64,000 bases of DNA from Shigella phage Moonfish, in the sequence record PQ613263, one strand, 5' to 3'. Below the pieces are notes generated by a model. That model saw only the letters and a list, made by a program, of their open reading frames with translations. It did not search any database and was not told the origin of the DNA. Below, one piece after another: positions 1,487 to 51,450 of this stretch. Each line of letters starts with the position of its first letter. Position 1 is the first letter of the stretch. The translations under genes and the position numbers were made by a program.

Positions 1487-2689
1487 ATGTTAAACTATAA
1501 CGCTCCAATTGACGGTCAGAAATCTAGTATTGATGGTGCTGGTTCCGACCAGATGAATACCTTTTACTGGCTGAAGAAGGCTATTATTCAGTCCCGTAAA
1601 GACCAGTACTTCATGCCACTGGCTAACACCATTAACATGCCGAAAAACTACGGTAAGACTGTTAAGGTGTATGAGTACGTTCCTCTGCTCGACGACAAGA
1701 ACATTAACGACCAGGGTATCGATGCTAATGGTGCTACCATCGTTAACGGTAACCTGTATGGTTCTTCTAAAGACGTTGGTAACATCACCTCTAAACTGCC
1801 TCTGCTGACAGAGAATGGTGGCCGTGTTAACCGTGTAGGCTTTACCCGCCTGTCTCGTGAAGGTTCTATTCATAAGTTCGGTTTCTTCTACGAATTTACT
1901 CAAGAGTCCCTGGACTTTGATTCTGATGACCAACTGAAAGAACACCTGTCTCGTGAACTGCTTAATGGTGCTATTCAGTTGACTGAAGCTGTTCTCCAGA
2001 AAGACTTGCTGGCTGCTGCCGGTACTGTACTGTATGCAGGTGCAGCTACCTCTGATGCTACCATCACTGGTGAAGGTGCTACCCCGTCTGTAGTTTCTTA
2101 TAAGAACCTGATGCGTCTTGACCAGATTCTTACTGAGAACCGTACCCCGACTCAGACCACTATCATCACTGGTTCCAAGCTGACTGATACCAAAGTACTT
2201 GGTGGTACTCGTGTAATGTACGTTGGTTCTGAACTGGTTCCAGAACTGAAAGCGATGAAAGACCTGTTCGGTAACAAAGCATTCATCGAAATTCAGCACT
2301 ATGCTGATGCTGGTACTCTGATGAATGGTGAAGTTGGTTGTATCGACAAGTTCCGTATTATTCAGGTTCCTGAGATGCTGCATTGGGCAGGTGCTGGTGC
2401 TGCTGCAACTACTAACCCGGGCTACCGTTCTTCTATGGTTGGTGGTGAAGAACACTACGATGTATTCCCGATGCTGGTAGTTGGTGATGACTCCTTCTCT
2501 ACCATTGGCTTCCAGACTGATGGTAAGTCTGTTAAGTTCTCCATCATGACTAAGATGCCGGGTAAAGAAACTGCTGACCGTAATGACCCATATGGTGAGA
2601 CTGGCTTCAGTTCAATCAAGTGGTACTACGGTATCCTGGTTAAACGTCCAGAGCGTCTGGCCCTGATTAAGACTGTTGCTCCTCTGTAA
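1487..2689 (+). CDS. major capsid protein (N4 gp56-like)
   Basis: 400-aa ORF with highly biased codon usage and G/T/A-rich composition typical of HK97-fold coat proteins; followed by a strong hairpin terminator; size and position match N4-like major coat protein. Confidence 0.75.
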
Positions 2690-2707
2690 TAGTCTGAAAT
2701 AAAACAA

Positions 2708-2725
2708 GGGGGACTCATGTCCCCC
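2708..2725 (+). terminator. intrinsic terminator after capsid gene
   Basis: GGGGGAC-tcat-GTCCCCC hairpin followed by T/A-rich tract. Confidence 0.6.
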
Positions 2726-2756
2726 TCTTAATAAAACTAAATGAACCACAGGAAAT

Positions 2757-3398
2757 ATGAACATGAGTATTAACGATAAACCGACCACTGACGTAGAACT
2801 GGACGTACAGGGCAACGAAGATACCGTTAACGATATTGCAATGCCTAGCGAACTTGAAGTTCTTAAGCAACGTGCAACGTTGATGAATATTAAGTTCTCT
2901 AACAACATCTCCGTTGAAAAACTCCGTGAGAAAATTGAAGCTGCACAAGCAAGCGACGAACCAGAAGTAACAGAAGCTGCTGTTAACCCACTGGGGGCTA
3001 AACAGGAAGCAGGTGCTAAGAAGATGACTCTGGGTCAGAAGATTCGTGCAGAACAGACTCGTTTGATTCGTGTACGTATCCAGAACCTTGACCCCAAGAA
3101 GAAAGACCTGCCGGGTGAGATTATCACCGTAGCTAACGAATATATGGGTACTGTACGTAAGTTTGTTCCATTCGGTGAAGTAACCGACAATGGTTATCAT
3201 ATTCCGTACTGTATTTATGAGTTCCTTAAAGAACGTAAGTTCATCAACATTACGACTCGTAAAGGTAAGAATGGCTTACCGGATATCCGTGCAACAGAAG
3301 CACGTGAGTTCTCCATTGAGGTACTGCCTCCGCTGACTGAAGCAGAATTGGCTCAACTGGCTCAAGCACAGATTGCTGCTGGTAGCCTGAACGATTAA
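2757..3398 (+). CDS. hypothetical virion protein (N4 gp55-like by synteny)
   Basis: 213-aa ORF in late operon between capsid gene and next terminator. Confidence 0.55.
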   Translation: MNMSINDKPTTDVELDVQGNEDTVNDIAMPSELEVLKQRATLMNIKFSNNISVEKLREKIEAAQASDEPEVTEAAVNPLGAKQEAGAKKMTLGQKIRAEQTRLIRVRIQNLDPKKKDLPGEIITVANEYMGTVRKFVPFGEVTDNGYHIPYCIYEFLKERKFINITTRKGKNGLPDIRATEAREFSIEVLPPLTEAELAQLAQAQIAAGSLND

Positions 3399-3419
3399 CG
3401 TATAAGCTACAGTTCAACA

Positions 3420-3456
3420 CGGCTCACTGGGGTAACTCCGTGGGCCGTTTCTTTTT
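3420..3456 (+). terminator. intrinsic terminator
   Basis: 8-bp GC-rich stem (CGGCTCAC/GTGGGCCG) followed by TTTCTTTTT. Confidence 0.5.
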
Positions 3457-3468
3457 GAACCAAGAGGA

Positions 3469-4311
3469 ATGATTATGTCTTGTTCTGCTGAGGTAGAAGC
3501 TAACCGACTCCTAGAAGAGTTAACTAAGGGTGATGACTTTACCCTTCCCGATATTGATATGTCCGGTCCTGAATGGGATATCCCAGGTGGGGATGATTCT
3601 CCAATCTTTGGTGCTATTACCAAAGTAACCAATGAATCACTTACTACCCGCGAAGTAGGTGGTAGTGGTACGTTTGATGCATTAATGGAATCTGCACACA
3701 ATCACCTTAAAGCTGAGTTTAAAGCTAATCGTATTACCGGTGGTGAGTATACCAAGGCATATATTGCTATGATGGAATCTTGCATGGGGAATGCTGTTCA
3801 GTTCTTACTTGGTCGTGACCAAGCATACTGGGCTGCTGCTATGGCACAGATTCAGGCAGTTACTGCTCGTGTTCAACTGGCAACCTCTAAAGCACAGTTT
3901 GTACTGGCTAAGATTCAGGCACTGTCCGCTAAGAGTGAATATGCTCTTACTAAGATGAAGATTGCTACTGAGTCTGAAACGTACTGTGCTGCATTGTTTA
4001 ATGCTAGTCAGATGTTACCTCAACAGCTTAAGCTGATTACAGAACAGACCGAAGCACAACGTGCACAGACTCTGGATACCCGTACTGATGGTACTGCCGT
4101 TAAAGGTTCTGTAGGTAAACAGAAAGAGTTGTACACCCAACAGATTACTTCTTACCAACGTGATGCAGAAGTTAAAGCATCTAAGCTGTTTACTGATGCA
4201 TGGATTACTCAGAAGACTATTGATGAAGGCTTGAATCCACCTAATGGTTTCACTAACGCAAGTATTGATACTATTCTGACCAAGCTGAAGTCTAACAACG
4301 GGCTGAACTAA
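3469..4311 (+). CDS. hypothetical virion protein (N4 gp54-like by synteny)
   Basis: 280-aa ORF with RBS; alpha-helical, Q/A-rich. Confidence 0.55.
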
Positions 4312-21654: not shown

Positions 21655-21728
21655 TGCCCACTACTGGATTTGAACCAGTGACTTTCCGATTATTAGTCGG
21701 TTGCTTTCCCCGTCTAAGCTAAGCGGGC
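21655..21728 (-). tRNA. tRNA gene (manual fold); anticodon loop CUAAUAA, anticodon AAU if numbering is canonical (Ile-type; A34 is unusual)
   Basis: Folded by hand on minus strand: acceptor GCCCGCT/AGTGGGC (one G.U), D-stem GCTT/AAGC with GG in D-loop, anticodon stem CCGA/UCGG, perfect T-arm ACTGG-TTCAAAT-CCAGT, discriminator A. Confidence 0.6.
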
Positions 21729-30317: not shown

Positions 30318-31023
30318 CCTGATGTTCAGCATGGGTCGTTAATCCATGCCCGTCTTTCGACTGCTGCATATTCCTATGCAGAGCAGACTATATCATCACG
30401 CCAGATAGTAAGGCGTGCCATGCGCTTCCACCCACTTGAGTGTACTCTCTTTCGAGATAGTCGTTGCACCTTTCAATGCTGCGTGTAACCGAGCGTGGTC
30501 AGGAACACTTAGCAATACAAGATTATCAAAGTCGTTGTTATACGGATTCTCATCACAATGATGCACACACCAGCCTTTTGGTATTTCACTGATATTAAGT
30601 GCCTCACATACTACCACATGGTGAGCAAAAACGTGTTTACTGCCTTTGCGTGCAGTATACCAATCCGGTTTAAGTACCATTAAGTAACCTTTACTGTCGG
30701 ATACTAAACCTTTGTAGTTATGATGGTCTTTCCCAAATTTACCTAGCATGGGGTTATTTTCCCCCAGCTTGGAGCGTCGGTAAGACTTTGCATTTCTGTT
30801 TTGACGGTATTCTTTACTGTAGTTCTCCATAATATATTTAGAGACTTTTTTGTAATTAATACCTAAACGCTTTGATATTTCTGCTTGAGATAGGTCAGTA
30901 TTCTCGTACAGAGTCTTGATATCCATCATGTGCCTCCTAAGGCAGGTATGGTTGATTTGGCTCAGGATTGCCCGGTCTGGGTTTCCCCTGAATTCACATG
31001 GTTTAAATAGCCCAATTTATTTT
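30318..31023 (-). mobile_element. probable group I intron (706 nt) inside DNA polymerase gene, carrying an HNH homing endonuclease ORF
   Basis: Interrupts a conserved Pol A motif; 5' exon ends in U, intron ends in G; GGGCU 10 nt into the intron can pair with exon-end AGCCU (P1 with U.G); frame is preserved across the junction. Confidence 0.7.
30396..30929 (-). CDS. HNH homing endonuclease (intron-encoded)
   Basis: 177 aa; own RBS TAGGAGG; N-terminal HTH-like segment; C-terminal HNH motif CVHHCDENPYNNDFDNLVLLSVPDHARLH. Confidence 0.8.
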   Translation of the reverse strand: MMDIKTLYENTDLSQAEISKRLGINYKKVSKYIMENYSKEYRQNRNAKSYRRSKLGENNPMLGKFGKDHHNYKGLVSDSKGYLMVLKPDWYTARKGSKHVFAHHVVVCEALNISEIPKGWCVHHCDENPYNNDFDNLVLLSVPDHARLHAALKGATTISKESTLKWVEAHGTPYYLA

Positions 31024-42903: not shown

Positions 42904-43410
42904 TTATTTACTGCTTCTCGCAGCTACTGGTTTGTTTTCCTGGTTATTGTACTTGCCTGTGTATGTGGCAGGTTCTTGAACCAGATGAAATAATACTTGA
43001 GCTATCCCGGAACCAGCCGGGATATGTAATTTCTTACGTCCGTGATAGACCAGTTCAAGGGTAAGATACCCTTTCCATCCTGGTTCAATCACGGTATTGA
43101 ACACTGATAATGCACGTCTTGCCCATGTAGACTTATCGTGAACGATTGCTACACAGGATGGGGACATGTTGAACTTCTCAATGGCTGAAGCCAATGCGAA
43201 CTTACCGAGATGGTGTGATACCTGTTTTCCATCAATGATTTTCACCATTGGAATCAACCCAAATAAGCGATAGAAGGTAATATCTTGTTTGATACGAATA
43301 TCATAACCAGCTTCACCCAACCCATAGCTTACACCATGCTCGGATACCTTACGGTCTGGGACATCCAGTAATTGAGAGGAACGATATAGGGAATTACCGT
43401 TAACAACCAT
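42904..43410 (-). CDS. dCTP deaminase / dUTPase-superfamily enzyme
   Basis: 168 aa; IEPGWKGYLTLELVYHG...IPAGSGIAQVLF matches the Dcd/dUTPase beta-jellyroll signature. Confidence 0.6.
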   Translation of the reverse strand: MVVNGNSLYRSSQLLDVPDRKVSEHGVSYGLGEAGYDIRIKQDITFYRLFGLIPMVKIIDGKQVSHHLGKFALASAIEKFNMSPSCVAIVHDKSTWARRALSVFNTVIEPGWKGYLTLELVYHGRKKLHIPAGSGIAQVLFHLVQEPATYTGKYNNQENKPVAARSSK

Positions 43411-44585
43411 TATTTCATTCCTTTAGGGATATGAACTACCTCCCCAAAAGGTACGGTAGCACTAGGATTATTCAGAACACACCATATGATAGGGATATCA
43501 AATGGTAATTCCTCCATTGGATGAACATACATATCGGAGAATATGATTGCAGCGGTTGGCTTATTCTTAATAATCCAATCCCGTACTGGCACAAGACTTG
43601 TACCACCACGGCCCGTAATCTTAATCTCTTCAAAAGTATCTTCTTCAGTGATGTCTATTTCTTCTTGGATAATATCGTCGAAGGTAATTAAGGACATCTT
43701 CTTAGGATTGAACTGGCTCTTAACGTAGGCAACCTCAGAGTTAAAACGCAGAGAGTCAGCACTACTAATAGAACCAGATACATCCTCAAAGTAAGCTAAG
43801 TGTCGTAAGCGTCCTTCATCATCTTCCAGGGATGGTAGATAGATGTCAGTGAAACGACGGTTAGGTCTGGCCCACGTATAACGTGAGTCATCAATGTCAG
43901 TGAAGAAATCCATCAAGACTTCCTGCCATGGAACTACTGGCTTAAGGAATTGGGTAATAACCTCTTCCATATGACCAGCACCCTTACCAGGCATTGTTCC
44001 ACCAGCCATCTTCTGGCTTTGCATCGCACGTACTACGTTGTTGACAACAGCACCCTGGGACTGCCCCGGAGTGGGAGCTTTCATGTCGCCAGCAAGACCT
44101 GCTCCAGCACCCCCTGACGGCTGCTGCCTTTTCTGAGGGTTCTTCATCAGGTCATCGTAGATGTCTTCTTCAACCCATCCTTTGTATTGAGGGTCTTTGC
44201 AAATACCTTCGTCGATACCAGTGAACTTGTAACCATCTTCCTCTAACTGAAGATTAATGAAGTGGTCACATGCCTGGTTCCAGACTTCTGGGTCACGGCT
44301 TCCACATCGGATGCCATGCAGATATGCCACATGCCAGAGTTCGTGCATTAATACGGTTTCTCTGGCATCTGGACACATCCAGACAAAGAAATCGGGATTG
44401 AAATGGAGTTCTATCCCATCAGTACATGCAGTGGGACAATCCTCACGTCTCCATGAGAATTTAAGGCTACACAGCAATGAACCAAAAAACGCTGCGCTGC
44501 GTCCAAGAAATGCGTTGGCTTGTATTCTATCGTACTCCCTCATTAACTGTTCATCAGTGAGGGTATGTGAAGGTATGTTATTCAT
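43410..44585 (-). CDS. VWA-domain protein with N-terminal HExxH metallopeptidase-like domain (MoxR partner)
   Basis: 391 aa; HELWH zinc-binding-like motif; MIDAS-like D-x-S-G-S (EDVSGSIS). Confidence 0.55.
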   Translation of the reverse strand: MNNIPSHTLTDEQLMREYDRIQANAFLGRSAAFFGSLLCSLKFSWRREDCPTACTDGIELHFNPDFFVWMCPDARETVLMHELWHVAYLHGIRCGSRDPEVWNQACDHFINLQLEEDGYKFTGIDEGICKDPQYKGWVEEDIYDDLMKNPQKRQQPSGGAGAGLAGDMKAPTPGQSQGAVVNNVVRAMQSQKMAGGTMPGKGAGHMEEVITQFLKPVVPWQEVLMDFFTDIDDSRYTWARPNRRFTDIYLPSLEDDEGRLRHLAYFEDVSGSISSADSLRFNSEVAYVKSQFNPKKMSLITFDDIIQEEIDITEEDTFEEIKITGRGGTSLVPVRDWIIKNKPTAAIIFSDMYVHPMEELPFDIPIIWCVLNNPSATVPFGEVVHIPKGMK

Positions 44586-44679
44586 TAAGATGCTCCATGA
44601 TTAGGGTGATAGCCATACAGTTTTTCAGCTGCTTTTCTAGCGTCTATGGCATCCTGCTTTTCAGCAAAAGTGCCTAAAC

Positions 44680-45033
44680 TTACCAGATGGAATCTCGTTT
44701 ATGCCAGTACACCCCAGTTACTCCACTGGAATTAGTTACACGTTTCTTTTGGTTTCTACTGTTAGTTTTGCTGTCCACCAACCTAAAGTTACTTAATAGA
44801 TTGTTAACCCTATTATGGTCTATGTGGTCAACCTGCATTCCCTTTGGTATAGGTCCATTGTGCATTTCCCATATGACACGATGCACTTTGTAGCTTTTGC
44901 ACTTATAGTTAAAACACAGATACCCATCACCATTTAAAGAGCCAACCCTGCCCCCAGCAATGGCCCTTGAGGACAATGTAACTTTCCAGAATAGCTCACC
45001 ATTTTCATAAACGAGTATGTCATTCCAGTTCAT
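44680..45033 (-). CDS. free-standing HNH endonuclease (HNH_3-like) with truncated AP2-like tail
   Basis: 117 aa; GYLCF...HRVIWEMHNGPIPKGMQVDHIDHNRVNNLLSNFRLV; C-terminal GVTGVYWHKR AP2-like start then stop. Confidence 0.7.
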   Translation of the reverse strand: MNWNDILVYENGELFWKVTLSSRAIAGGRVGSLNGDGYLCFNYKCKSYKVHRVIWEMHNGPIPKGMQVDHIDHNRVNNLLSNFRLVDSKTNSRNQKKRVTNSSGVTGVYWHKRDSIW

Positions 45034-45036
45034 AGA

Positions 45037-46089
45037 TTATCCGTGAATGTAACGAGAGATATTGGCAGCAGCCTTACGCCATTCAGGGGTAGCCTGAATT
45101 TCTGGTAATGCTCTACCTACTGTACGGAAGTACAGAATCTTATGAGTGAACGTTTTAAAGCGTTCAATGTACTGAAGAACATCAGCGAAGTTTTCTTCAG
45201 TAGTTTTGTTAGCCAGATGGTTAACGGTAGCCCAACACAGGTTGTTATCTTCCGGTAGTGCACAGCCCATAGGGTCTTTGACTACTTTCTCAATCGTAAT
45301 CATACGATTGTATACCTGAGTGAACTGAACAAATTCTGTAGCCTTACCAGCAGTAACGTGGCCTGCATAATAGATAGAATCTTCATCAGGCAGAGCACCT
45401 TCTGGTCGGTTCTTGAGGTCTTTATTAACAAAGTCCCAGGTACGAGGGCAACAGAATGTTTTGTTCTTGTGGGCAGGATCGAAGTCATGCAGATAACCAG
45501 GGTTAGCATGTAAGAATGCAACCAGACGCTCGTCCCATTCCTGTGGAATCATTACGTCTTCAACAAAGATGTCGAAGTTAAGTTCCATTTCGAAGTGGAC
45601 AACTCGAGACTGCATTGCAGTACCTAGTGGGTTAACAATGGCACGGTCAGTAGCTTTGTTACCAGCACAGACAATCATCACATTAGGGTGAAGTTTTTTC
45701 TGACCAGTCATGCGGTCAAGAATTAGTTTGTATGCAGCAGCTACTACTTCTTTCTTAGCTGAGTTGAACTCATCAAGGAACAGGAGCCATCCATTGTAAC
45801 CTTCAGGGATTTCATCCCCTTCAATTGGGAACAAGTCAGCGAATGGAATAAACTCTGCACGGTCACCATTACGGAATGGTAGACCTGATAGGTCTTCTGG
45901 GGCAGAAGTAGACAGACGATGGTCAATCAGCTTCATACCAAATTCATCTGCAACAGAACGAATAATTGCAGATTTACCCATGCCTGGTGATGAAGTCAGG
46001 AACGGTACGTTACCTGCTTGTAAGGCACGGATAATAAAGTTACGGGCTTGACGTGTGTTACATACAGTCAAGGAGTCAATGCTTGCCAT
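45037..46089 (-). CDS. MoxR-like AAA+ ATPase
   Basis: 350 aa; Walker A SPGMGKS, Walker B LLFLDEFN. Confidence 0.7.
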   Translation of the reverse strand: MASIDSLTVCNTRQARNFIIRALQAGNVPFLTSSPGMGKSAIIRSVADEFGMKLIDHRLSTSAPEDLSGLPFRNGDRAEFIPFADLFPIEGDEIPEGYNGWLLFLDEFNSAKKEVVAAAYKLILDRMTGQKKLHPNVMIVCAGNKATDRAIVNPLGTAMQSRVVHFEMELNFDIFVEDVMIPQEWDERLVAFLHANPGYLHDFDPAHKNKTFCCPRTWDFVNKDLKNRPEGALPDEDSIYYAGHVTAGKATEFVQFTQVYNRMITIEKVVKDPMGCALPEDNNLCWATVNHLANKTTEENFADVLQYIERFKTFTHKILYFRTVGRALPEIQATPEWRKAAANISRYIHG

Positions 46090-46123
46090 TTACTTACTCT
46101 CCTAAAGGTAATGGAATTACTAA

Positions 46124-46453
46124 TTAAGATTTAACACAAGGGTATGCTTTATTAACGGCGTAGCTCATGATTGCGAATGAGGACTGCATCGATAATACTT
46201 CAGGGTCATACACAATTACTCGCGCTACACGATCGGTGATGCTTCCGTACTTCATTCCTTCCGGGATACAGTTTTCAGTACTATCCCCATACAATTGAAC
46301 CATGCCAGAGAAGTAACCTTGTAGGAAATGCCTACCAGCGTCATTGTGGTAAGCTTGTGCAGCCTTAATAAGGTTATCTGCTGAGCCAGATGCCTTAGCA
46401 GAAAAGGACAGAGCTGACAAAGCTACTACAGCAACAGCAATTAAAGTTTTCAT
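46124..46453 (-). CDS. secreted/periplasmic protein with signal peptide
   Basis: 109 aa; N-terminal MKTLIAVAVVALSALSFSAKASG. Confidence 0.5.
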   Translation of the reverse strand: MKTLIAVAVVALSALSFSAKASGSADNLIKAAQAYHNDAGRHFLQGYFSGMVQLYGDSTENCIPEGMKYGSITDRVARVIVYDPEVLSMQSSFAIMSYAVNKAYPCVKS

Positions 46454-46639
46454 TTAGTTACCTTTTAACTCGTTGAGTTGAAGTACTCCGGTAGGGGTTA
46501 ATGACCACCCAAGACCAGCATTGAACTGTACTAAGCCCAGTTTCTTAAGAGACTGTGCGGTTTTGTTATTACGGTTGCTGGTGGCAGAACCACCTTGAAC
46601 CATGCGAAGGAATATTACTTGGGACTGGGTAAGTTTCAT
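46454..46639 (-). CDS. hypothetical small protein
   Basis: 61-aa ORF with start/stop overlap to neighbours. Confidence 0.4.
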   Translation of the reverse strand: MKLTQSQVIFLRMVQGGSATSNRNNKTAQSLKKLGLVQFNAGLGWSLTPTGVLQLNELKGN

Positions 46640-47511: not shown

Positions 47512-47567
47512 GTATGTATCCTCTTGAGTAAATATGCCTAATCATTATGAAGGCTGATAAAAAAGAA

Positions 47568-47587
47568 AGCCACCCTTGAGGGTGGCT
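47568..47587 (-). terminator. intrinsic terminator (minus strand)
   Basis: AGCCACCC-ttga-GGGTGGCT hairpin with T-run on the minus strand. Confidence 0.55.
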
Positions 47588-47804
47588 AGTTGTTGATGTG
47601 GTAAATCCAGTAAGCTATCCAACCGGCTAATACAAAGCATCCGGCAGAGTACGCCCCATAGTAGCAATAGGCAAACTTGGATTTATGAGCGTTAACCATA
47701 GTGAGTATTACAATAGCAGATAAAACTATCAGTACGGTTTTAGTAATAACATCATAGATGTCTGGCATGTTGACTACCTCCAAGCAAAAAATAAAAGGCC
47801 TCAC
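47586..47804 (-). CDS. small membrane protein
   Basis: 72 aa with two hydrophobic segments. Confidence 0.45.
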   Translation of the reverse strand: MRPFIFCLEVVNMPDIYDVITKTVLIVLSAIVILTMVNAHKSKFAYCYYGAYSAGCFVLAGWIAYWIYHINN

Positions 47805-47822
47805 ACCCGAAGGTATGAGGCC
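47797..47822 (-). terminator. intrinsic terminator after RNAP II 3' exon
   Basis: GGCCTCA...TGAGGCC hairpin with TTTTATTTTTT on the minus strand. Confidence 0.5.
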
Positions 47823-47828
47823 AGTTTA

Positions 47829-47861
47829 TTAACTTAATGCATAATCCGTTTCAAGAATGTC
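47829..47861 (-). CDS. RNAP II large subunit, 3' mini-exon encoding the C-terminal foot (D)ILETDYALS
   Basis: Closely resembles the T7 RNAP C-terminus RDILESDFAFA; exact 3' junction inferred. Confidence 0.55.
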   Translation of the reverse strand, partial: DILETDYALS

Positions 47862-48988
47862 CTGCCAGAGGCTGTCATCCAGCTTACCCGCAGAGAACTC
47901 TTGTCCCAGTACCTGAGATAGGATGAAGCCCAGCAAGTCACTCTTAGCAATGTCAGATAGAATCTGATTGTACTGACGACGTAGGTCATTACCATAGTTA
48001 GGATGACAACGAAAACCATTAGTTAAACGAGTCGTTAGCTCGCCCTTACCTTCCATGATTAACATGAAAGCCATATGTAGCATCTGCTTGTTTACGAGCA
48101 AGCATTGCCTCCTCAAGTGTGTCGTACGTACCCAGACCGATCTGTTTGCGATTGACTGTGATGTGTGCCTGAAATCTACCAGAAGGCAGTATTCTCACAC
48201 CGTTCACTTTGCTTGAAGTATTACTAGATAAACTCATATTCATCTGGTTCTGTCTGCTGGTTACATTTCTCAAATTAGACCAACGATTGTCGTTTCTAGT
48301 ATGATTGATGTGGTCCACCTGGTTAGGTGTTTCCCCAGTTTCCATTATCCAGATTATTCGATGTAGTAAGTACTCTTTGCGGCCCAGGCTAACGGATAGA
48401 TACCCTTCTTTGTGAGGATACCCCACAATTGTTCCGGCTAACCCACTGGCAGAGTCATAACGATGAGTCACTAGCCCACTATCCCTGTCATACCTTAAAA
48501 CCTTCTGCAAAGATTCTTGGGTAATATTACCCAAGTTTATTATTAGGTTTTTACAGGTAGAGCATAGATGACCTATTGGACTCTTTCTAGCATCATAGAA
48601 GTTACAAACAAACTCATTAGAGCATTGCTTGCAACTACAGATAGCTGTGTACTTACCAGTTTTACGTAATATTTGAGAGTTATCTAACATATGGATTCCT
48701 TAGTAATTTTGCATACAATTTCAGATTGTATCCTAACCAAGGAAGTAAGTCTCCAATTTTCACTGGAGTATCGGACTATATCATCACCCACTAATCAGTG
48801 GGGCAAGGCGCTTGGGTGGTCACTTGACTCACCTACTCTACTCACATACGAAATGCTTTCGATAGTCTCTGAACCTTCCCTCATAGAGGGCTTGGCTGCT
48901 GATTGGCATATCCATAGGACTTAGCTTTCCAGCAATTCACCTTGTTTTCGACACGGATTACTCCGTGAAGGATCATTTATGTTTAATC
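47862..48988 (-). mobile_element. probable group I intron (~1.1 kb) in RNAP II large-subunit gene, carrying an HNH-AP2 endonuclease ORF
   Basis: Upstream ORF stops right after ...VLTVHD, 9-10 codons short of a T7-like C-terminus that is encoded 1.1 kb downstream in frame-compatible position; splice after caU with intron ending caG satisfies U/G group I rules. Confidence 0.55.
48046..48690 (-). CDS. HNH endonuclease with AP2 DNA-binding domain (intron-encoded)
   Basis: 214 aa; own AAGGAA RBS; HNH_3-like GYLSVSL...HRIIWIMETGETPNQVDHINHTRNDNRWSNLR; C-terminal AP2-like GVRILPSGRFQAHI...GTYDTLEEA. Confidence 0.8.
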   Translation of the reverse strand: MLDNSQILRKTGKYTAICSCKQCSNEFVCNFYDARKSPIGHLCSTCKNLIINLGNITQESLQKVLRYDRDSGLVTHRYDSASGLAGTIVGYPHKEGYLSVSLGRKEYLLHRIIWIMETGETPNQVDHINHTRNDNRWSNLRNVTSRQNQMNMSLSSNTSSKVNGVRILPSGRFQAHITVNRKQIGLGTYDTLEEAMLARKQADATYGFHVNHGR

Positions 48989-50014
48989 ATGTACAGTCAA
49001 TACAGGGAATGGCTTCTTAGGTAAAGTGTCCAGCATGTCTGCTACTACCTGACGGTCAACCATAGCAATAGTGCCTGGGTCGAGATAGTCGATAATAGAC
49101 ATAGATAAGAATCCAGACTTCTCGTAGTGTTCCCACAAGGTCTGTACCATTTCCATGTTACCTTCAATCTCCCCATACTCTGCTGGGCCTGTGTCGCAGA
49201 GTTCACGAACAGCAGCAACCAGGTTAGCATCGAAGTTACAACGACGCAGCATCTCGCGTACCACCATCCCATCAATAGAGTGGGTGATGTTAGCAGAGAG
49301 CATACGAGTCTTCTCTTCAGTACCCTGAACCATGCGGGTAATGTCGAATGGTTTACCTAAGAAGTTAACAGTCTGTACTTCTGGAACCATGACCTTAATG
49401 ACGGCATGGAAGTTGTCAGACAATACCCATACGTAACGGTTAGCATCCGGGTTACCACATTGCAGTAAGAACTTGTTCAATGCCCAAGGCCCACTAGCAA
49501 CAGTTTCCATTACATTCTCAAAAGTCTTGAGACGGATACCCTCACCGAATACTTCTTTAGGCTTAGCTTCTGAACCGTAGAATGCAGTCATAACTGCCTG
49601 CTTAGTGTCACTACGCTTAATACGAGATGCTTCACCAAGGATGTCCAACATCTTGTGATAGATAACTGTATAAGCATCACGACGTAATGGCTTACCGTTT
49701 TCACCCATGTAGTTAACTACGTTACACAGTTCAGCAGCAGAACGGTCACCAGTCAGGCAAGCCAGTAACTGCAAGCCTGATGATGTAGCATCCAGAGCTA
49801 CGGCATAGCCAATAGGCTTACCGGCTTTCATATCTTTCCATGCGTTTACACCTGCATAGAACAATGCGGATTCTTCAGCTTCATCTACCAGATTAAGCAG
49901 GTTAGCTTCGTTTTCATCGAACCAGCTAATACGTTCATCCCATGTTTTCTTATCCAGACCCATGTTATTCGCAATATCAATCTTTAAATATTCTTTCGCT
50001 GTGAAAAGCTGCAT
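48989..50014 (-). CDS. phage RNAP II large subunit (N4 gp16-like, T7-like catalytic half), 5' exon
   Basis: LDATSSGLQLLA (T7 motif A FDGSCSGIQHFSA), KQAVMTAFYGS (motif B), ITHSIDG (T7 H784 region), RELCDTG (motif C). Confidence 0.8.
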
Positions 50015-50015
50015 C

Positions 50016-50597
50016 TTAAGCTCCTAGTTTCCACGTATAGCCATATGCTTGTGCATATGTACCAATAATTGATTGTTTAATGTTTGATGGTATTCCATTT
50101 ACACTGCGTGCTGCTGCACTCAGTGAATGGAATGTCTGGATGTAAATACCATCCAGTGTGTATTGCTCTACAGGGATAGCAGATTTGGTATTAATACCGT
50201 TGATTGCATCAGAGTAATACCTTCTTACATTGGCGTTTACCGTAACAACACGAATGTTATCCAGTGAGTAACCTTTATAGTCATCCAGCCTGTCAAGGCT
50301 TGGCTTCAGGTTGGTTGGGTAATCCTCTATTACCCATTTATCATACAGAGTGTGAAACTCTTTCTTTGATAACACCCATTGTTCTAGTTCCTCTTTAGTA
50401 AAAGTAACAGGATTAAACCCTTTCTTCTTGGTTCTGCTTACGCAACCGGAGTACATTTGATTAATGACTCCTTGTTTGGAATGGATAAAACGTTTCACAC
50501 AGTCTTTACAGTCTGCTCTTACACCCTGTTTACCTGTGGACTGTTTATTGAACATGTCCAGAGGCAAGTTCTGCTTACATACTGAACATGTCTTCAT
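50016..50597 (-). CDS. homing-endonuclease-like protein (Cys4 zinc ribbon + C-terminal NUMOD1-like DNA-binding motif), free-standing between RNAP II subunit genes
   Basis: 193 aa; CSVCK...CKDC; C-terminal FHSLSAAARSVNGIPSNIKQSI...GYTWK resembles DNA-binding tails of GIY-YIG/HNH homing endonucleases; no catalytic motif identified. Confidence 0.45.
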   Translation of the reverse strand: MKTCSVCKQNLPLDMFNKQSTGKQGVRADCKDCVKRFIHSKQGVINQMYSGCVSRTKKKGFNPVTFTKEELEQWVLSKKEFHTLYDKWVIEDYPTNLKPSLDRLDDYKGYSLDNIRVVTVNANVRRYYSDAINGINTKSAIPVEQYTLDGIYIQTFHSLSAAARSVNGIPSNIKQSIIGTYAQAYGYTWKLGA

Positions 50598-50598
50598 A

Positions 50599-51417
50599 TT
50601 AATCCTCGTTTACTAACTCTTTATCTGCGAACTCTATAACTGCCTTATTGTAAGAGGTTCCCGCATAGTTAATATGGTATCCACATGCATATGTTCTTCC
50701 CCTCTTATCAAATTTATGTGCTAGTGAGAAGTTATTACCTTCTTTGGTCACTAACTCCATTACTTCCTTAGCTGTACGGCTGTACTTCTCAAAGGCTTTA
50801 ACTCGTTTCTCATAGTCCTGACGGGTTTCACCCTCTTTGGGTTTATCCATGTTAGGACGAGAGTCTTTTACATAGTTGGCAACGTCCCAGTTAATACAGA
50901 GTCGTTGGTTGTTCATACGGTTAATGTGGTCAAGGCAGACGTCCATCTCATGATGGTTCTTCTTGAGGATGATTGAGCCTTTAGATTCATAGTAGCCAGT
51001 GTCCCGATTAGTCAGGACTGGCTTAGGCTTACTGACGATAGGTAATGGATACTGGAATGCCTCCAGTTCCATCTGAACATCTTCACTAATCTCATAAATA
51101 ACACCGAACTTGTCGATGGTAGGGTCATAGTTGAAGCAGTCATTCTCTGCCATCTTATACAGACAGTCAGCGATATACTGAGCGTCATCTGAGTGACTCA
51201 TGAGAGAGCCAATCATAGTCTGAATGTCAGCACGTTTATGTAGGGCAATCTGCACCATTGCATCAATGAGCAGCTTATAATCAATTTCTAAATAGGCGGC
51301 GAATGCCTTAAAGTCAATTTCTTTGGAGTCCTCAAATTCCTTCCTCATGCGAGGGAGTAATTGGTTTTTGTTGAAAAGGATTTCAAGTTGCTTCTGATGT
51401 TCAATAGATGAGTACAT
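50599..51417 (-). CDS. phage RNAP II small subunit (N4 gp15-like, T7-like N-terminal half)
   Basis: 272 aa; KFDKRGRTYA matches the T7 RNAP DWRGRVYA motif; RBS AGGAG; directly upstream of the large subunit. Confidence 0.7.
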   Translation of the reverse strand: MYSSIEHQKQLEILFNKNQLLPRMRKEFEDSKEIDFKAFAAYLEIDYKLLIDAMVQIALHKRADIQTMIGSLMSHSDDAQYIADCLYKMAENDCFNYDPTIDKFGVIYEISEDVQMELEAFQYPLPIVSKPKPVLTNRDTGYYESKGSIILKKNHHEMDVCLDHINRMNNQRLCINWDVANYVKDSRPNMDKPKEGETRQDYEKRVKAFEKYSRTAKEVMELVTKEGNNFSLAHKFDKRGRTYACGYHINYAGTSYNKAVIEFADKELVNED

Positions 51418-51450
51418 CGCATATTCTCCTAAATGTTATTAATAACCAAA

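Follow-up and report, generated by a model that had tools for sequence, protein, structure and literature searches.

A Probable Free-Standing HNH-AP2 Homing Endonuclease Gene, Probably Inactivated Recently, at the gp24/gp25 Junction of Shigella Phage Moonfish

In Shigella phage Moonfish (record PQ613263), a G7C-like N4-like coliphage of the genus Gamaleyavirus (Schitoviridae), genes 24 and 25 are separated by what is, very probably, a recently inactivated homing endonuclease gene (HEG) of the HNH-AP2 type that is free-standing, i.e., intron-less. Within the 64,000-nt stretch of DNA analyzed here (the window), the HNH-AP2 architecture of this gene is incomplete: 10 residues of the AP2 domain are deleted, and the remainder is out of frame (Table 1). 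A sequence-only reading of the window had proposed a decaying or trans-acting homing endonuclease; decay was borne out, and the trans-acting alternative found no support. First, the gene is missing in most relatives. Second, intact alleles are found at the same junction. Third, the AP2 remainder is present out of frame. Fourth, the loss is a 31-nt deletion with a 7-nt repeat. The finding is of use chiefly for annotation: the locus is better recorded as a pseudogene (44585-45033) than as a 117-aa 'HNH endonuclease'.

Table 1. Coordinates of the probable HEG pseudogene, its neighbors and the other endonuclease genes of the window.
Feature	Coordinates	Strand	Basis
Truncated ORF of the probable HEG pseudogene, 117 aa	44680..45033	-	ORF list; PHROG 99 'HNH endonuclease' 1.1e-42
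HNH_3 (beta-beta-alpha-Me, 'HNN' type) nuclease domain, residues 48-93	44755..44892	-	Full-length Pfam match
In-frame AP2-like stub, residues 103-117, SGVTGVYWHKRDSIW, beta1 and start of beta2	44683..44727	-	Alignment to intact alleles
Deletion junction, sole remaining TCTGGTA copy	44681..44687	-	Pairwise alignment to PD38; motif position
Out-of-frame 3' remnant, -1 frame, ...SLGTFAEKQDAIDARKAAEKLYGYHPNHGAS then stop, AP2 beta3 end and helix	44585..44679	-	Translation and PD38 alignment
GGAG Shine-Dalgarno-like motif, 7 nt upstream of gp25 ATG, in remnant His-Gly-Ala codons	44593..44596	-	Sequence read directly
Recoded gp25 5' tract, nt 7-48, all HEG carriers	44538..44579	-	Fixed differences, mismatch counts, BLAST
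Upstream neighbor, N4 gp24-like AAA+ ATPase, intact	45037..46089	-	Pfam AAA; PHROG 1297 ATPase
Downstream neighbor, N4 gp25-like DUF2201_N and VWA-like protein, intact	43410..44585	-	Pfam; PHROG
HNH_3 and N-terminal helix-turn-helix, free-standing endonuclease	30396-30929	-	Pfam; PHROG 7545
HNH_3 and AP2 ORF	48046-48690	-	Pfam
NUMOD1 endonuclease ORF	50016-50597	-	Pfam; PHROG 1035 'endonuclease VII'

The 117-aa ORF starts with an ATG 3 nt past the stop codon of the upstream gene and ends with a TAA at 44682..44680. Its earlier assignment to the HNH_3 type was confirmed by a full-profile Pfam match (PF13392; residues 48-93, profile 1-46/46, E = 8.8e-19) that scored 67.3 bits, with a curated cut-off of 24.8. 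The closest solved structure by sequence was the HNH nicking endonuclease I-HmuI of SPO1 (PDB 1U3E; E = 7.4e-7 for the allele of phage PD38). Identity was low and restricted to the nuclease core, where the D-H...N...N catalytic residues aligned ungapped: D69, H70, N82 and N91 of the HNH_3 domain correspond to D74, H75, N87 and N96 of I-HmuI (PD38 allele aligned to 1U3E). The four columns were invariant in the alignment of the Moonfish ORF and the intact alleles. In I-HmuI, the aligned Asp and His form the general base of catalysis, and the Asn residues have metal-binding or structural roles. I-HmuI is intron-encoded, and its C-terminal DNA-binding domain is a helix-turn-helix (IENR1-type), not AP2.

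The C-terminus of the Moonfish ORF reads ...GVTGVYWHKRDSIW up to the stop codon and represents only the initial beta-strand or strands of an AP2-like domain, which in complete form has three beta-strands plus a helix; the AP2-like tail is cut by a stop, as had been proposed. No AP2 match was obtained by Pfam for the 117-aa ORF at E <= 0.1. The very same junction is occupied by intact alleles of 158-159 aa with HNH_3 and AP2 in PD38, G7C, Mimir124 and the UE phages, and Pfam AP2 spans residues 102/103-151 of these alleles. For these alleles and the in silico repaired Moonfish sequence, AP2 was matched over profile positions 1-53/54 with E = 8e-5 to 6.5e-7, corresponding to 23-30 bits, which is below the Pfam gathering score of 33.3 even in intact alleles.

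The closest allele is that of PD38, which is intact (480 nt, 159 aa) and contains HNH_3 and AP2 (profile 1-53/54, E = 7.8e-5). Global alignment of the Moonfish gene (449 nt) to it revealed one 31-nt gap and no other indel. In PD38, two copies of the 7-nt repeat TCTGGTA lie 31 nt apart, and the segment that they bound is missing in Moonfish. This footprint is as expected for replication slippage or a microhomology-mediated deletion. The lost segment encodes YAAISDGTRL plus 1 nt and extends from the end of AP2 beta2 through the turn into the first part of beta3. The deletion of 31 nt shifts the frame so that C TGG TAA becomes a stop. When the 31 nt were restored in silico, the AP2 match was regained (E = 2.6e-5, profile 1-53/54).

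It had been suggested that the missing AP2 remainder might be encoded in another frame at 44586-44679, and translation of the other frames found it there, as LVSLGTFAEKQDAIDARKAAEKLYGYHPNHGAS followed by a stop in the -1 frame (44686..44585). The accompanying suggestion of a frameshift held in part: the AP2 tail is out of frame, but the lesion is a deletion plus frameshift and not a simple frameshift. With ten of its residues missing, the AP2 domain could not be brought back by a frameshift. That the two frames are joined to an HNH-AP2 protein by programmed -1 frameshifting of the ribosome near the stop is scarcely credible. The downstream frame is indeed open for 37 codons, reaching back past the stop and ending at the ancestral stop, but the ancestral reading frame accounts for this in full. 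Moreover, the sequence GAT TCC ATC TGG TAA contains no X XXY YYZ slippery heptamer, and the hypothetical fusion, still without the 10 residues of beta2-beta3, gave no AP2 match at E <= 1. Recoding was rejected on account of the missing slippery site and the missing AP2 match of the fusion product. Independent translation of the 3' remnant was rejected as well, since it contains no in-frame ATG, GTG or TTG.

The truncation was present only in the Moonfish genome and one identical Logan contig when the phage collection, IMG/VR and Logan were searched. The Logan assembly of SRR32252115 was 100% identical over 2344 nt (window positions 44176-46519), deletion included, and may derive from the same isolate or reads; no match to the deletion junction was found in IMG/VR contigs. 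A sequencing or assembly artefact concealing an intact gene is very unlikely. Probable sequencing errors are present in records of this gene, as those of Bp4 and Uz-1 show a 1-nt homopolymer gap and Bp4 gp24 and gp25 are split, but base-calling or homopolymer errors do not typically remove 31 nt between exact 7-nt repeats. The identity of the separately produced Logan assembly likewise argues against an assembly artefact, though it possibly stems from the same isolate.

When the phage collection was searched with the gene by BLAST, the same allele type was retrieved only from PD38, Bp4 (two records) and Uz-1, and none of these alleles has the 31-nt deletion. The dN/dS ratio relative to PD38 was 0.064 in the translated 5' part and 0.067 in the untranslated remnant, which comprises only 33 codons. 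Thus, the deletion appears to be recent, as judged by the lack of other lesions and by dN/dS values equally low in the remnant and the translated part.

Alternatively, the 117-aa HNH-only protein might still be functional and have been kept as a nickase, trans-acting or of relaxed specificity, or as a nuclease guided by a partner, e.g., excluding co-infecting HEG-less phages, with the truncation tolerated or selected. We consider this improbable. The full HNH_3 match with D69, H70, N82 and N91 conserved, the start codon close behind gp24 and the lack of further lesions would be in line with it, as would the HNN-only proteins without AP2 of other phages (group III, PMC2248197). However, the lesion-free state is equally expected of a recent deletion, the dN/dS of the remnant is as low as that of the translated part, and the truncation is confined to Moonfish and the identical Logan contig, while the AP2 tail is kept at the DNA level in nine of nine other carrier phages (seven with annotated full-length ORFs). 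If the nuclease were retained after all, gp25 nt 7-48 would mark its recognition site, and intron-less homing in N4-like phages would be directly testable.

The gene is distributed as expected of a mobile element, being present or absent at one precise site among close relatives. Over 2.7 kb, the region shows 91-93% identity to PD38, Bp4, G7C, Mimir124 and about 50 other records. Among 55 related records matching the gp24/gp25 junction region, 11 carry the HEG, always at this junction. Four records have the PD38-type gene (PD38, Bp4 (two records) and Uz-1), and seven have the G7C-type gene with 59-62% protein identity to Moonfish (G7C (two records), Mimir124, UE-S5a, UE-S5b, UE-M3 and UE-M6). 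At least 42 of the 55 lack the HEG: 40, comprising most other Gamaleyavirus records, by a span in the BLAST table that indicates an empty site, and two, PBM-3 and PW8, by direct inspection. The idea of a mobile insertion would have been contradicted by a full-length orthologue in all relatives; at least 42 empty sites were found instead. The insertion boundaries are identical in all carriers, with the HEG ATG replacing the gp25 ATG and the HEG stop overlapping the new gp25 ATG.

The two allele types are about 60% identical to each other, within backbones that are more than 90% identical. Between Moonfish and PD38, dS was 0.99 for the HEG compared to 0.31 for gp24 and 0.39 for gp25, and this higher value fits a separate evolutionary history for the insert. 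That the gene is instead a domesticated resident of the phage, e.g., a DNA-metabolism nuclease acting with gp24 and gp25, can be given hardly any credence. Its position is fixed, and it is co-oriented and tightly packed with gp24 and gp25, but it is absent from most of the records, where the gp24 stop and the gp25 ATG are only 4-7 nt apart, and both the allele divergence and the dS excess over the flanks speak against residency. In Bp4 (2673-3160) and Uz-1, the HEG copies show a gap of 1 nt within an A-run when aligned to PD38, and the Bp4 record also splits gp24 and gp25; the gap is probably a homopolymer sequencing error and not real decay.

The insertion had been described as lying between a MoxR-AAA gene and its VWA partner. 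The placement between an AAA+ ATPase and a VWA-like partner was correct, but 'MoxR' fell below the Pfam threshold: the gp24-like gene scored 27.1 bits for AAA (cut-off 21.2) and 13.5 bits for bpMoxR (cut-off 27). The gp25-like gene matched the DUF2201_N putative metallopeptidase (3e-55, 188 bits) and the DUF2201 VWA-like domain (1.2e-33, 116 bits). In many RefSeq and Pharokka-annotated records (e.g., NC_070869, NC_070873 and PQ310662) and in PHROG 1314, gp25 is labelled 'HNH endonuclease'. Pfam found no HNH domain in the DUF2201/VWA-like gp25, and the label is misleading and likely a propagated mis-annotation. In phages U1G (3357-4297) and PW8 (2356-3225), an insertion containing an HNH endonuclease, annotated 'Phage intron' in U1G, interrupts the ATPase gene gp24 itself, and the gp24/gp25 junction is empty. 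This gp24 insertion is a second, independent HEG target in the gene pair.

The 5' end of gp25 differs between genomes with and without the HEG. Over its first 60 nt, 17-23 mismatches were counted in every HEG+/HEG- pair examined, compared to 4-7 within the HEG- genomes and 4-10 between Moonfish and other HEG+ genomes. In the rest of gp25 and the last 60 nt of gp24, only background divergence was observed. Six HEG+ and eight HEG- genomes were separated by nine fixed differences, all in gp25 nt 7-48, and by none in nt 49-300. In a collection-wide BLAST, at least 80% identity to the first 100 nt of Moonfish gp25 was reached only by HEG-carrying records. Judged by these sequence patterns, gp25 nt 7-48 is likely a candidate target-site/immunity or co-conversion tract, and it could be a hitch-hiking co-conversion tract and not the recognition site. 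As a candidate target/immunity tract, it is directly testable. A mosaic is present at 44486-44585, where the 5' end of Moonfish gp25 is 95% identical to Mimir124 and 81% to PD38. Mimir124 carries a G7C-type HEG, whereas the body of the Moonfish HEG is of the PD38 type. This combination of a PD38-type HEG with a Mimir124-like gp25 5' end points to recombination at or near the HEG/gp25 boundary.

The proposed course of events begins with an intact element in which the C-terminal AP2-like DNA-binding domain would guide the HNH nuclease. HEG-less genomes would be cleaved at or near the gp24/gp25 junction, most likely within the initial ~50 nt of gp25. Repair by recombination with a co-infecting HEG+ genome would then copy in the HEG and, along with it, the adjacent recoded gp25 5' tract that resists cleavage. 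The incoming HEG would take over the initiation region of gp25 by supplying a new GGAG motif and an overlapping TAATG stop-start, and the insertion would in this way do no harm. In Moonfish, the 31 nt between the direct repeats may have been lost most simply by replication slippage or microhomology-mediated repair, and the 117-aa product would retain an intact nuclease core without the DNA-binding domain. Since the only recognizable DNA-binding module was destroyed, site-specific cleavage and homing have most likely been lost in this protein.

The remnant ends with a TAA (44587..44585) that overlaps the gp25 ATG as TAATG. Translational coupling via this original overlap is lost in Moonfish, so that the GGAG, a putative gp25 ribosome-binding site, probably keeps gp25 translated. 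CATGGAG is conserved in all HEG+ genomes, and the 3' remnant is probably kept for the ribosome-binding site that it would provide. A scan of 44300-45300 for sigma-70 promoters and terminators gave no excess over shuffled sequences and is not informative for N4-type middle promoters.

The Moonfish gene shares locus, orientation and HNH_3 plus AP2 architecture with G7C gp24.1 (YP_004782150.1), PD38 AXY81310.1 and Bp4 orf67. Protein identity to the PD38 allele is 89% over 117 aa, compared to 59-62% for G7C-type alleles. The Moonfish copy differs from those of G7C and PD38 in lacking 31 nt and ending after AP2 beta1/beta2 with the tail out of frame. Since publication of the G7C genome, gp24.1 has carried the annotation 'putative HNH homing endonuclease' with a similarity to TLS EndZ, and no paper on the function of gp24.1 or experiments on its orthologues was found. 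HEG-related indel loci and the g16 intron were noted in G7C-like phages in a 2019 preprint (bioRxiv 10.1101/542787).

Free-standing HNN/HNH-AP2 genes with a C-terminally truncated AP2 have been described as a post-invasion decay step in Xanthomonas phages and T5 (PMC2248197). The genes of the Xanthomonas oryzae phages Xp10, OP1 and Xop411 and T5 hegG/hegJ have the same domain pair as that of Moonfish but belong to another host and phage family. In the Moonfish case, the lesion can be located exactly, the ancestral allele and the empty site can be identified as well, and, unlike the X. oryzae phage genes, its HEG has a flank signature in the recoded gp25 5' end. For T4-like phages, homing of free-standing HEGs without introns is textbook knowledge, as are truncated relics of HEGs (PMC2993671). 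As at the Moonfish locus, T4 SegF/SegG and MobE are encoded by free-standing HEGs beside conserved genes, sporadic among close relatives, and the presence of such an HEG goes along with sequence polymorphism in the gene next to it, as for the gp25 5' end. The T4 nucleases are, however, GIY-YIG Seg and Mob-type HNH enzymes, and homing was demonstrated experimentally in T4, whereas it is inferred for the Moonfish locus. The finding is a clean but ordinary case of a known stage in the HEG life cycle and leaves current understanding unchallenged. It also provides a natural example of the homing cycle within one phage genus, where the unoccupied site and a newly broken copy are found alongside two lineages of intact alleles.

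The gene had been counted as the fourth endonuclease gene of the window, and the three others (30396-30929, 48046-48690 and 50016-50597) proved real by Pfam and PHROG matches. No further paralogues of the four were found among the six-frame ORFs of the window. The endonuclease at 30396-30929 is only distantly related to the ORF at 44680 (E ~1e-3). The gene for the RNAP2 large subunit (N4 g16; 47829-50014, minus strand) is split in catalytic motif C (...PVLTVHD / CFRCHPNYG...) by an insert of ~970 nt (~48015-48986), in which an Rfam group I intron (48751-48994, 91 bits) is combined with ORF 48046-48690. Megablast against the phage collection yielded no record covering this insert, the best coverage of 47560-51420 being 68%. 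The g16 intron of Sz33, which was shown to splice, is located at a different site, QAVMTAFYGSEAK, that is unoccupied in Moonfish.

ORF 50016-50597 is wedged with 1-nt gaps between the RNAP2 subunit genes g15 (50599-51417) and g16. Its equivalents are G7C ORF15.1 and, under the same match, an HNH endonuclease annotation in Bas96; most other relatives covered 57-59% of the query 47560-51420, compared to 67-68%. An Rfam scan of the whole 64,000-nt window gave no match at the 44680-45033 locus and found only the g16 group I intron and a tRNA gene at 21655-21728 on the minus strand (Rfam tRNA, 63.8 bits).
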